From the NCBI GenBank assembly GCA_043814055.1, contig JBDRKL010000008.1, positions 1-52,194 on the forward strand: 52,194 nucleotides of DNA, written 5' to 3'. The stretch comes from an archaeon (lineage in GTDB: Archaea > Undinarchaeota > Undinarchaeia > Undinarchaeales > JBDRKL01). Under the pieces are notes generated by a model, which was given only the letters and a program-made list of their open reading frames with translations, had not been told where the DNA came from and searched no databases. The position numbers were made by a program, and so were the translations under genes. This document shows, piece by piece, positions 32,413 to 38,447 of the stretch; the first letter of the stretch is position 1, and each line of letters begins with the position of its first letter.

Positions 32413-32557
32413 GTGCTTGGTTGACAGGTTTCACCAAAGGCAAACAAATTGCTTGGCAAGGTGACTTCGCCGCAGGCGCAAATTCGCGACAGCGAATTGC
32501 GCAACACGCTTCGCGTGTTTGTGAATGTCGCCTAGCGTGTCAACTTCGCTAGAAGTT
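32413..32557 (+). ncRNA. Structured 5' leader element of tRNA-Thr (shared with tRNA-Leu)
   Basis: Begins GTGCTTGG; GTTGACA/TGTCAAC long-range stem; hairpins at 32476-32502 and 32503-32519; ends in a 24-mer identical to the one upstream of tRNA-Leu. Confidence 0.65.
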
Positions 32558-32632
32558 GCCTCGGTGGCTCAACGGTAGAGCGTCGCTCTCGTAAAGCGAA
32601 GGTTGGGAGTTCAATTCTCCTCCGGGGCTCCA
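32558..32632 (+). tRNA. tRNA-Thr(CGT), intronless, CCA encoded
   Basis: Acceptor GCCTCGG/CCGGGGC, anticodon arm TCGCT-CTCGTAA-AGCGA, T arm GGGAG-TTCAATT-CTCCT, U73, CCA. Confidence 0.95.
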
Positions 32633-32726
32633 ATTCAAACTTTTTAGTAAAAAAGTTTGATCAAAAACACCCCGCCCACAGGGCTCCAATTCAAACTTTT
32701 TAGTAAAAAAGTTTGATCAAAAACAC
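32625..32726 (+). repeat. 46-bp direct repeat (2 copies) including the tRNA-Thr 3' end and a palindrome
   Basis: GGGCTCCAATTCAAACTTTTTAGTAAAAAAGTTTGATCAAAAACAC at 32625-32670 and 32681-32726; internal TCAAACTTTTT/AAAAAGTTTGA inverted repeat. Confidence 0.9.
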
Positions 32727-32768
32727 AACATCAATTCTCCTGCGCAGACCATTTTCACAAAAGGCACT

Positions 32769-35948: not shown

Positions 35949-36140
35949 TTATTTTCTCACAAAGTAAAGCATCAGGGCAATCCTAATTAAAACAAGCGCC
36001 ATCAACATCCAAAGAATATTTATCAAATTCCCTGTCTGCGCTGCGTAGAGGAAAATTATTACAAAACCAACCCAAGTTACTGCACGAATCTTATTGTGCG
36101 GAAATTTCAGGAATTCCTTGAGTTCGTCGATGAGTTCCAT
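35949..36140 (-). CDS. Small two-TM membrane protein (63 aa)
   Basis: MELIDELKEF... starts just downstream of tRNA-Leu; two hydrophobic segments. Confidence 0.6.
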   Translation of the reverse strand: MELIDELKEFLKFPHNKIRAVTWVGFVIIFLYAAQTGNLINILWMLMALVLIRIALMLYFVRK

Positions 36141-36151
36141 TTTAAGATTAA

Positions 36152-36237
36152 TGCGGGGGGCAGGATTTGAACCTGCGTATTCACTAAGAAACAAGGTCCT
36201 AAACCTTGCGCGATTGGCCAGGCTACGCGACCCCCGC
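36152..36237 (-). tRNA. tRNA-Leu(TAG), intronless, CCA not encoded
   Basis: Acceptor GCGGGGG/CCCCCGC-A, anticodon arm CAAGG-TTTAGGA-CCTTG, long variable arm, T arm GCAGG-TTCAAAT-CCTGC. Confidence 0.95.
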
Positions 36238-36332
36238 AACTTCTAGCGAAGTTGACACGCTGTCCCGCACCACTTTGGTGATGCTGCGGGACTACCGAGC
36301 GAGTCCACCTCAGTCAGTAAATTGCCAAGCAC
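36238..36332 (-). ncRNA. Structured 5' leader element of tRNA-Leu (shared with tRNA-Thr)
   Basis: Begins GTGCTTGGCAA; TTGGCA/TGTCAA stem; GTCCCGCA/TGCGGGAC hairpin; identical 24-mer abutting tRNA +1; ATAAATA about 20-26 nt upstream. Confidence 0.65.
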
Positions 36333-36362
36333 AATTAAGTATCTAACTAGGTATTTATCTTT

Positions 36363-38447
36363 TCACTCCAACCCATCAAAAATATTTTTTGCAACTTTAA
36401 CCCCAATCAGCTTTGAAACTCTCTCAAGCCCGGCCTTCTTGATGTCCTCAATGCCTTTAATCCCATTTGAGTGCAGCGTCCTCGCCCTAACTCTTCCAAT
36501 ATTCTTAATCCTAACCAGGGGCAAAAGTTCCATCTTAACACCATACTTCAGCCTCTTCCTAACTGTATTCGCCATCGGCACAATCTTCTCCCTCTCCGCA
36601 AGCCGCGCAATCTCTGAGCAGGCATAGAGCAGCCAATCCGCCACAGTCAGCTTCCCGTGCAAAACTCCCGGCGGCAGACCATACTTGTCATAAATCTTGT
36701 CATCAGTAACCTCGTTCATCCACTCAAAGAAAATGTAAGCATTTCTGAACGCGCGAAACTGCTCATCAACCAAGTCATATTTCTCAAACTGCTCATACAG
36801 CTCAACTTCCTCCGAACGCCGAACAGTTCCAATCGGCCGCATCTCCGCGGAGTCCGAAAGCACAGTCAACAAGACGACCTCATCCAATTTCTCCCTCTCA
36901 AACAACTGCAGAAAATCCCACGCAGTCAAAGGATCAAGATAAAGCTCAGCGACTCGTCTACCTAATTTAGTACATCCTAACATATTCTCATGGCGATTAA
37001 CAAACCCCCAGTCAAACAATTGGTCAAGAACCCGGTCAATCAACTCCTCCAATTTTTCCATATCTCCAAACTGGTGAGCATAAAACGTTTTCTCAAAAAA
37101 TTCGTAAAGATTCTCCTTGCTCCACGGCAGCTGCGCAAGCAGGCCGAGCACGTGCGTTCTCATAACCGGTTCAACCCCGAGCTTTGAGCTAATCGGCTCT
37201 GGGCTCCCTTCAACATAATGCTCCCACAGCATGTCAAATTCTTCCTCGTTCTTCGCAATCAAAATCGCTTCCCCCTCATTGTCATACTTCGGTCTTCCTG
37301 CCCTGCCGAACATCTGGTGCACTTCAAGAATTGGAATCGGTTCCATTCCAAAATTCCCATACCTCCTGTAATCGCGAACAATCACGCGCTTCCCAGGCAA
37401 GTTCACCCCTGCGGCAAGAGTCGGCGTAGCTGAGATGACTTTAATCAAATTATTCTTGTAATTCTTCTCAACAATCATTCTCTGTTTCTGGTGCAGTCCT
37501 GCGTGGTGGAACGCTGTGCCCTGCCTTACACAATCCGAAAGTCTCTTGCACTGCCTCGTTGGCGAGTCAAGAACATTCAAAACCTGCTCTGATAATTTTG
37601 ACAATTCTTTTTTCTCTTTCGTGTCCAGAATCTCGTAAATCTTTTTCCCGGTTTCTTCTGCCTCTTTCTCAGCTCCTTTCCGTGTGTTAACAAAAACCAG
37701 GCTCTGCGCCCCGTTCTTCACAATGTCCAGGGCCAAAACTTTTGAAGGCTCCAGTCCGCCGCTAATCTTCAAGTCAGCCTTCCCGCTGAACGTAACCTCC
37801 CCGTCCAGATAAACTCCGCGCGAAAGTTTTATCGGTCTGAACTCTGACTCAACAAGCTCAGCTTCCAACCACTCCGCAATCTCGTCCGAGTTTTCAATTG
37901 TCGCTGACAGCGCCAACATCTGCACTTTCATACTTTTCAATCTTGTCGCAACCATCTCAATCGCCGGCCCCCTATTCACAGAATCAATAAGATGCACCTC
38001 GTCAAGCACGACAAGCCTGACGTCCCTGAGCCAATCCTGCCCGTGCCGCATTATTGAATCAAGTTTCTCATTTGTCAAAATCACAATATCAAACCCAGCG
38101 AGTTCTGCCCCGCTTGAGTCATAGTCCCCGGTTGAAATCCCAATCTTCGCAAACTCGCTGTACTTCTCCTTCATGTCCTCAAACTTCTCAAAAGCAAGAG
38201 CCCTGAGCGGCGCAGTGTAAAGCGCCTTACCCCCTTTCAAAACCTGATTAAGCATGGCGAGCTCTGCAATCAAAGTTTTCCCCGAGGCTGTCGGAATACT
38301 CAGCACAAGATTTTTCCCTTCAAAAACTCCGGACTCAATCGCTTCTTTCTGCGGCGGGAACAGCTCGTCAATTCTGTCAATTTCCTGAACTCTCTGCACC
38401 ACATCCGCGAGCGCTGGGTATTTTTTTGAAATCTCCTCAAGTTTCAT
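36363..38447 (-). CDS. hel308: Ski2-like helicase Hel308/Hjm
   Basis: IPTASGKT, DEVH, LSAT, FHHAGL, TPTLAAGVNLP, QMFGRAGRP, C-terminal HhH IGRVRAR.L. Confidence 0.93.
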   Translation of the reverse strand: MKLEEISKKYPALADVVQRVQEIDRIDELFPPQKEAIESGVFEGKNLVLSIPTASGKTLIAELAMLNQVLKGGKALYTAPLRALAFEKFEDMKEKYSEFAKIGISTGDYDSSGAELAGFDIVILTNEKLDSIMRHGQDWLRDVRLVVLDEVHLIDSVNRGPAIEMVATRLKSMKVQMLALSATIENSDEIAEWLEAELVESEFRPIKLSRGVYLDGEVTFSGKADLKISGGLEPSKVLALDIVKNGAQSLVFVNTRKGAEKEAEETGKKIYEILDTKEKKELSKLSEQVLNVLDSPTRQCKRLSDCVRQGTAFHHAGLHQKQRMIVEKNYKNNLIKVISATPTLAAGVNLPGKRVIVRDYRRYGNFGMEPIPILEVHQMFGRAGRPKYDNEGEAILIAKNEEEFDMLWEHYVEGSPEPISSKLGVEPVMRTHVLGLLAQLPWSKENLYEFFEKTFYAHQFGDMEKLEELIDRVLDQLFDWGFVNRHENMLGCTKLGRRVAELYLDPLTAWDFLQLFEREKLDEVVLLTVLSDSAEMRPIGTVRRSEEVELYEQFEKYDLVDEQFRAFRNAYIFFEWMNEVTDDKIYDKYGLPPGVLHGKLTVADWLLYACSEIARLAEREKIVPMANTVRKRLKYGVKMELLPLVRIKNIGRVRARTLHSNGIKGIEDIKKAGLERVSKLIGVKVAKNIFDGLE

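Follow-up and report, generated by a model that had tools for sequence, protein, structure and literature searches.

A dispersed, mosaic hairpin cassette as the probable leader of tRNA-Leu(UAG) in an archaeon of the order Undinarchaeales

What are the 95 nucleotides that lie between a promoter-like box and the first base of tRNA-Leu(UAG) in this archaeon, and are they an RNA kept for the sake of the tRNA or a repeat that has come to rest in front of it? The locus is part of a window of 52,194 nucleotides (the whole stretch of contig JBDRKL010000008.1 that was analysed), and the genome searched along with it, that of a DPANN-type archaeon, comprises 0.98 Mb in 14 contigs and is 82% complete. 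The initial annotation regarded the element as the second and minimal copy of a leader also found before a tRNA-Thr, and considered the pair a functional structured RNA whose peripheral helices vary. The explanation favoured here, and held to be fairly probable, is that the element is a lineage-specific mosaic hairpin cassette situated between promoter and tRNA, a position in which it is tolerated. It resembles a selfish insertion, transcribed and then trimmed away, more than a purpose-built regulatory RNA. The features of the locus are the following.

36152..36237, minus strand: tRNA-Leu(UAG) (Rfam RF00005, 52.5 bits; ARAGORN gives 36151-36238)
36238..36332, minus strand: the Leu element, a 95-nt leader before tRNA-Leu(UAG) and a copy of a dispersed family (sequence read)
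36238..36253, minus strand: terminal hairpin AACUUC-GCUA-GAAGUU, flush with the tRNA +1 (reading and fold)
36251..36257, minus strand: UGUCAAC, invariant within a subfamily of nine copies, with a different sequence at this place in other subfamilies (alignments)
36262..36292, minus strand: hairpin A, an 8-bp stem GUCCCGCA/UGCGGGAC with the conserved loop GCAUCACCAAAGUGG (fold and inverted-repeat search)
36292..36300, minus strand: conserved motif GCUCGGUAG, family consensus GCUYGGUAG, immediately 5' of hairpin A (alignments)
36301..36332, minus strand: variable 5' part with GUGCUUGGCAA and the UACUGA...CUGAGGUGGACUCG region (reading)
36352..36359, minus strand: TATA-like box GATAAATA (direct reading)

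The element (window 36238-36332, minus strand) stops exactly at +1 of the tRNA. Read on the minus strand from 36332 to 36238 it is GUGCUUGGCAAUUUACUGACUGAGGUGGACUCGCUCGGUAGUCCCGCAGCAUCACCAAAGUGGUGCGGGACAGCGUGUCAACUUCGCUAGAAGUU and passes directly into tRNA-Leu(UAG), and its order is GUGCUUGGCAA..., UACUGA/UCGGUA, GUCCCGCA...UGCGGGAC and AGCG-UGUCAAC-UUCGCUAGAAGUU. Direct reading confirmed this layout as it was initially described, together with the length of 95 nt against 145 nt for the Thr copy. The arms of hairpin A were placed at 36262-36272 and 36282-36292 by the inverted-repeat search, and the hairpin may alternatively be drawn as a helix, a 3-nt bulge and a helix. The variable 5' part stands in place of the first hairpin that is usual in the family, H0.

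The TATA-like box lies 4 nt past the stop codon of a helicase gene and about 20-24 nt ahead of the element, and is likely the promoter of a transcript made of leader and tRNA. As there is no A/T-rich box inside the element or between the element and +1, the element is taken to be transcribed with the tRNA as its leader. For the eight tRNAs that bear a cassette, the nearest all-A/T octamer on the upstream side is 102-169 nt away from +1; among the other tRNAs the median distance is 30 nt. The genome carries an RNase P RNA gene (RF00373, 141.2 bits, contig C12, 3873-4205), and the cassette would presumably form the whole 5' leader of the pre-tRNA, with RNase P cutting at +1. A search for complementarity between UGUCAAC and the RNase P RNA found no site.

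Neither the Leu nor the Thr element stands alone. A 19-nt part of the 3' block that they share has five occurrences in the genome as opposed to none for a reversed-pattern control, hence the shared block is not due to chance. The covariance model R1, made from five copies and covering 75 nt with hairpin A and the terminal hairpin, finds 27 genomic copies at E <= 0.002, which are spread over 11 of the 14 contigs; the Leu copy scores 92.1 bits over 36238-36312. The order common to the family is the small hairpin H0 (CCAAAGGCAAnCAAAUUGCUUGG), GCUYGGUAG, hairpin A, a linker, the terminal hairpin and then a G. Hairpin A has an 8-bp stem with the conserved loop GCAUCACAAA, kept in most of the 20 aligned copies, and the terminal hairpin occurs in at least four unrelated sequence classes (AACUUC/GAAGUU, AACUG/CAGUU, CUCCGC/GCGGAG and GCCCG/CGGGC). 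By-eye counting of the alignment rows gives GTAG in 13 and G[TC]AG in 17 of the 20 copies. With a profile of the last 40 nt, nine copies are found that form a subfamily characterised by UGUCAAC and an AACUxx hairpin; four of them have AACUG...CAGUU replacing AACUUC...GAAGUU, which is a compensated change. Seven of the nine end 0-2 nt before the +1 of a tRNA, and these tRNAs (Thr-CGU, Thr-GGU, Thr-UGU, Leu-UAG, Pro-CGG, Asn-GUU and Ser-GCU) represent five amino-acid families. Of the remaining two, one precedes a non-tRNA structured region on contig C6 and the other, on contig C12, is turned towards the 3' end of a tRNA on the opposite strand. The 'conserved core' that the second copy was initially thought to define is, accordingly, the signature of a nine-copy subfamily within a family of 27 copies, whose terminal hairpins are entirely unlike one another.

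Rfam 15 at the gathering score reports nothing besides tRNAs in the window, and at E <= 1 on five copy loci it adds only two chance-level matches lying over tRNAs. No common sequence upstream of the copies was seen by eye, and the idea that a promoter region travels with the cassette was rejected on this ground. The C6 locus (about 87510-87680, minus strand) deserves a remark of its own: the UGUCAAC leader module is followed there by some 170 nt of non-tRNA sequence whose ends pair (GGUAGAA with UUCUACC) ahead of a T run. This region has no Rfam match at E <= 1 and may correspond either to a structured RNA of an unknown kind or to an RNA gene broken up by many interruptions.

The modular nature of the family is best illustrated with the sister copy in the same window.

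32413..32557, plus strand: sister copy before tRNA-Thr(CGU), 145 nt (direct reading)
32558..32632, plus strand: tRNA-Thr(CGU) (ARAGORN and Rfam)

The last 24 nt of the Thr and Leu copies are identical and an 8-nt GTGCTTGG is common to them at the 5' end. In the Thr copy the outer hairpin is of type B, GGUGACUUCGC...GCGAAUGUCGCC, and its loop encloses a module of two hairpins. The type-B outer hairpin is common to the Thr(CGU) and Pro(CGG) copies, where it is joined to the same 3' module (35 nt identical), and an identical 3' module of 24-35 nt joins unrelated 5' hairpins in different copies. Likewise, the inner two-hairpin module of the Thr copy is found again at 41821-41885 of contig C4 with 92% identity over 65 nt, this time inside another outer stem and, by eye, with a 14-nt direct repeat at its flanks. 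It also recurs within other outer stems and within the intron of tRNA-Trp. Judged from these sequences, what had been called 'variable peripheral helices' consists of repeat modules, interchangeable or nested, that occur elsewhere in the genome.

Repeats are also seen behind tRNA-Thr(CGU). A 46-nt block, which contains the last 8 nt of the tRNA including CCA and a T-rich hairpin trailer, is present in two perfect copies (window 32625-32670 and 32681-32726), and after the doubled block 32731-32744 is a 93% copy of the preceding 14 nt in the T arm of the tRNA. The repeats over 32611-32744 look like the outcome of repeated re-copying of the 3' end of tRNA-Thr(CGU). A trailer hairpin CAAACUUUUU-loop-AAAAAGUUUGAUCAAAA, for example at window 32633-32668, stands behind the Thr-CGU, Thr-UGU, Ala-UGC, Trp and Ile tRNAs and looks like a repeated terminator-like module. 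The genome has many long tRNA introns, which reach 193 nt in tRNA-Trp, and 40 tRNAs are called by ARAGORN with introns as against 31 by Rfam; the tRNA set is for these reasons only partly detectable by standard tools.

The structural claim was evaluated on 20 copies aligned to the model, a fit that favours the model, although the stems are plain in the raw rows. Hairpin A is paired in 96.3% of cells, with six of its eight pairs changed on both sides, and the terminal hairpin in 99% of cells, with five of five pairs changed on both sides; none of 500 shuffles scored as high for the two hairpins and slid controls were far lower. H0 is paired in 62.5% of cells. Folded alone, the Leu leader gives z = -2.48 (one of 200 shuffles as good) and the Thr leader z = -4.02 (none of 200). 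The closing stem UUGRCA/UGUCAA, which had been put forward as conserved by an A-U to G-U change, fared less well than the hairpins. It is present in the minimum-energy folds of the Leu and Thr leaders, each taken alone, but when scored as GGYA/UGYC over the copies it is paired in only 72% of cells with no pair changed on both sides. Moreover, RNAalifold on the five closest copies prefers a different closure, GAC.UGCU with AGCG.GUC, and the minimum-energy fold of the Leu leader is altered once the tRNA is appended.

The view that the element is not a simple recent duplication of one locus is upheld, and two hairpins keep their pairing through compensatory changes over 20 aligned copies. The initial interpretation holds in part: hairpin A and the terminal hairpin do covary, but a functional structured RNA with variable helices is not supported, the variable helices being the repeat modules described above. 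Wobble counts amount to seven G.U against four A.C in hairpin A and none of either in the terminal hairpin; there is no strand bias and the RNA strand is not singled out.

Eight of the 27 copies end 0-4 nt ahead of the 5' end of a same-strand tRNA, the junction with +1 being exact (0 nt) at five tRNAs and 2-4 nt away at three further ones. Two copies stop 1-3 nt short of the 3' end of a tRNA encoded on the opposite strand, and in a third such case, recognised by eye, the copy abuts a CCA-ending tRNA-like sequence that has no ARAGORN or Rfam call. Two copies are located 48-54 nt upstream of a tRNA with other hairpins in between, and two start about 20-26 nt after a tRNA. The remaining copies are intergenic, some of them between convergent genes and some upstream of promoters, and the family occurs in both orientations. 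The tRNA-like sequence of the third case, at about 102280-102352 of contig C12 (plus strand), ends with ...AAAUCUGGGCACCCCCACCA, and ~40 inserted nucleotides interrupt what looks like its T loop; probably this is a tRNA carrying a T-loop intron that both programs left uncalled, and its CCA end is adjoined by the cassette on the other strand.

Direct repeats of 17, 25, 34 and 45 nt flank four of the 27 copies, while repeats of at least 12 nt flank 0.7% of 1000 random sites; for repeats of at least 10 nt the figures are eight of 27 copies versus 4% of 1000 random sites. One of the long repeats duplicates a tRNA start with its leader (C12:18838) and another is a tandem accretion (C4:112886 and C4:113006). 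All eight copies that abut +1, those of Leu and Thr(CGU) included, have flanking repeats of only 6-7 nt, which is the random level. Decoy tRNA starts upstream of these eight copies gave nothing significant, the best candidate being that of Thr(GGU) with p about 0.04 before correction for eight tests. As the Leu copy has neither a flanking repeat nor a decoy start, its insertion is inferred from the sister copies and from the orthologous loci. The presence of a +1-abutting subfamily without flanking duplication is an addition of this analysis.

These observations weigh against the functional RNA that was initially proposed, since the copies are oriented either way at tRNA ends and also stand in ordinary intergenic DNA, four of 27 carry repeats of 17-45 nt, the stems have no G.U over A.C bias, and the element is at none of nine orthologous tRNA-Leu(UAG) loci. 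The features of a miniature transposable element that had been named as speaking against an RNA are encountered in part: target duplications are there at sister copies, but classical terminal inverted repeats are not.

The orthologous loci were drawn from 12 other genomes of the order, all outside the same family or genus, and four other genomes of the phylum were compared as well. The helicase neighbouring tRNA-Leu was found in 11 of the 12, and tRNA-Leu(UAG) lies beside it at nine of the 11 loci scanned. All nine tRNAs have an A/T-rich box directly upstream (by eye), and the hairpin element was found at none of them in the 200 nt upstream, by eye and with R1. In most relatives the tRNA is inverted relative to the helicase, so that the Leu promoters are not orthologous; a left junction for the Leu copy placed directly after ...GTGC, as in another locus, was rejected on that account. 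Three metagenome helicase loci with 63-67% identity showed no tRNA, no element and no R1 match. Similarly, none of the 16 tRNA-Thr genes in the rest of the order has an R1 match at the tRNA. The absence at orthologous Leu genes and the lack of R1 matches at Thr genes imply that the tRNAs do not need the leader.

Hairpin leaders of different sequence were seen by eye at two of these 16 tRNA-Thr genes, namely Thr-CGU of genome G001 and Thr-UGU of genome G004. In G001, which belongs to another family of the order, the leader is type-B-like, ends 1 nt before +1 of the orthologous tRNA-Thr(CGU) and carries compensatory changes in its outer stem; this could reflect long-term retention. The G001 leader cassette is dispersed in its genus, g2, with seven matches in G001 and 20 in G009. 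It measures ~85-120 nt and has a covarying GGCWGCUUCGC...GCGAAUGCWGCC hairpin followed by a CAGCCG...CGGCUG hairpin. Several g2 copies separate the ATG of a protein gene from a TATA-like box, and at one G001 and one G009 locus the second hairpin ends 0-2 nt before the ATG. In G004, tRNA-Thr(UGU) is preceded by a decoy of about its first 20 nt and a ~70-nt cassette, after which the intact tRNA follows.

Elsewhere in the order R1 gives weak matches only (best 25.8 bits), two of which, in G010, are convincing two-hairpin cassettes, and in the four other genomes of the phylum outside the order it gives no significant match (best E 0.2). The 3' motif with up to three mismatches, searched in 60 other genomes, returned only 3-mismatch matches at a rate like that of the reversed-pattern control. 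An exact 20-mer searched in one genome each of 185,579 species had two matches in unrelated bacteria, which is chance level, and none in viral contigs.

Several known systems resemble the cassette. REP and BIME sequences of Proteobacteria are mobilised by RAYT, a Y1 transposase, and a GTAG-type motif 5' of a hairpin defines REPs. Like them, the cassettes are short, numerous, protein-less extragenic hairpins that form mosaics of modules (27 copies with shuffled modules), have a GTAG-type motif directly 5' of a covarying palindrome and are transcribed within neighbouring transcripts. Unlike them, the cassettes have an archaeal host, no Y1/RAYT gene found, a strong association with tRNA termini, and long flanking duplications that differ in length from copy to copy. 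Gene-invading palindromic elements include the Rickettsia palindromic elements and the double-hairpin elements of fungal mitochondria. The cassettes share with MITEs and palindromic elements that they are non-autonomous, hairpin-forming, dispersed and tolerated where RNA or protein accommodates them, and with the mitochondrial hairpin elements that they adjoin tRNA genes. They differ from MITEs in having no terminal inverted repeats, a duplication that is not of fixed length, and no cognate transposase among the Y1/TnpB searches; the inverted repeats of window 36100-36420 are the internal hairpins and the tRNA acceptor stem only. The cassette works like REP/BIME and other palindromic repeats but falls outside their membership. 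The yeast Ty3 and Dictyostelium TRE5 are eukaryotic autonomous retrotransposons of kilobase size guided by Pol III factors, and they likewise insert only a few bases away from the point where tRNA transcription starts; the resemblance is in outcome only.

Archaeal precedents have been described as well. Near-identical introns have spread among the tRNA genes of Thermoproteales in an unexplained manner (Fujishima 2010, in the summary given by PMC4090602), and integrating elements leave tRNA-end duplications in archaea (Sugahara 2012, PMC3293823). As in the former case, the cassettes are near-identical short sequences in different tRNA genes of one lineage, and as in the latter, insertion can go with duplicated tRNA ends, but they are placed outside the mature tRNA, as a leader and not an intron; in contrast to the tRNA-gene-disrupting integrating elements, there is no recombinase-bearing element of 1.8 kb. 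The spread of tRNA introns and the integration duplications are the nearest archaeal precedents. Literature searches on Undinarchaeota tRNAs, DPANN MITEs and tRNA introns, transposition and leaders turned up no description of these elements, and the main text of the paper describing Undinarchaeota (PMC7414124) makes no mention of hairpins, repeats or introns.

The course of events suggested by the favoured explanation would be as follows. Dispersed cassettes without a protein gene of their own would accumulate at the ends of tRNA genes, and one of them would have come to lie between the promoter and +1 of tRNA-Leu(UAG) in this lineage. It would be transcribed as the entire 5' leader of the pre-tRNA and removed at +1 by RNase P, and would be tolerated there because the leader is discarded. 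The hairpins may be kept for the spread or persistence of the element itself, as folded DNA or RNA, and not for the need of the tRNA. In this genome, 82% complete, the Y1 transposase (PF01797) has no match at E <= 0.01 and the TnpB zinc ribbon nothing over the cut-off. An origin from the right end of an IS200/IS605 or TnpB element (omega-RNA-like) was rejected on these two results.

The exact +1 junction and the invariant UGUCAAC are, on the other hand, more than mere tolerance would predict. They lend some weight to a selected cis-acting leader, in which UGUCAAC and the hairpin module are kept before tRNAs and aid expression or maturation; such a leader could present the RNase P cleavage site, protect the 5' end or set the folding order. 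This alternative is unlikely but is not a negligible one, owing to the exact +1 junction without duplication, the invariant UGUCAAC and the G001 leader. It has in its favour that seven of nine subfamily copies are 0-2 nt before a tRNA +1 in five amino-acid families, that UGUCAAC is invariant while the adjoining hairpin covaries (AACUUC/GAAGUU vs AACUG/CAGUU), that the +1-abutting copies have no target duplication, and that in G001 the orthologous tRNA-Thr(CGU) is preceded by a hairpin leader, the outer stem of which is compensated. However, the element is absent at nine of nine orthologous tRNA-Leu(UAG) genes, R1 matches at none of the 16 tRNA-Thr genes of the order, and about 30 other tRNAs of the same genome do without the element. 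Further, two subfamily copies do not stand before a tRNA, one being turned towards the 3' end of a tRNA on the other strand and one lying ahead of a non-tRNA region, and no complementarity to RNase P RNA was found.

Less probable again, with only a slight chance of being right, is an independent sRNA gene in a dicistronic sRNA-tRNA arrangement, where the tRNA would serve as 3'-end processing signal and the sRNA would act in trans through the loop of hairpin A. The loop GCAUCACAAA on a covarying stem is indeed conserved in most of the 20 copies, a promoter-like box stands directly upstream, and RNase P would yield a defined 3' end. An sRNA gene is, however, difficult to reconcile with 27 paralogous copies that have interchangeable modules and both orientations, many of them with no tRNA or terminator after them. 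There is also no Rfam family match, no C/D or H/ACA boxes were seen in the sequence, and the four other genomes of the phylum outside the order have no significant match (best E 0.2).

That the leader contains a self-cleaving ribozyme which releases the 5' end of the tRNA is very improbable. The exact +1 junction and the structured leader are all that speak for it, but no ribozyme family was matched at the gathering score or at E <= 1, and the invariant stretches (GCUYGGUAG, the loop of hairpin A and UGUCAAC) are not common to all subfamilies; the idea of a ribozyme or of a substitute for RNase P was dropped once the RNase P RNA gene was found. Least credible of all is a plain, recent duplication of the segment upstream of one tRNA, which would account for the identical blocks of 24-35 nt common to copies but is refuted by identity that ends at module borders, by unrelated downstream tRNAs and by the spread of 27 copies on 11 of 14 contigs.

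A more novel reading is rather unlikely but not negligible. In it, the cassettes would owe their movement to a mechanism that recognises tRNA gene ends as such and takes no enzyme from the element, and the +1 subfamily would later have been retained as a functional leader module. Such a mechanism might respond to DNA melting where transcription starts, or to a tRNA-like fold adopted by one or the other DNA strand or by the RNA. The terminal hairpin would in this way come to adjoin +1 directly, or the CCA end where the cassette is turned round.

Streamlined genomes are commonly attributed to small symbiotic archaea; this genome nevertheless has dozens of protein-less cassettes concentrated at tRNA ends. 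Their covarying stems allow such cassettes to mimic 'conserved structured RNAs', and covariation alone is not evidence of RNA function. If the cassettes are mobile, they give tRNA genes leaders, decoy starts and perhaps introns, which would bear on how archaeal tRNA genes become interrupted. A mechanism directed to tRNA ends, if true, would amount to an undescribed tRNA-end-directed mobile element in archaea and to a route towards new structured RNA leaders. Likewise, the +1-abutting subfamily, if functional, would represent a new class of structured pre-tRNA leader.
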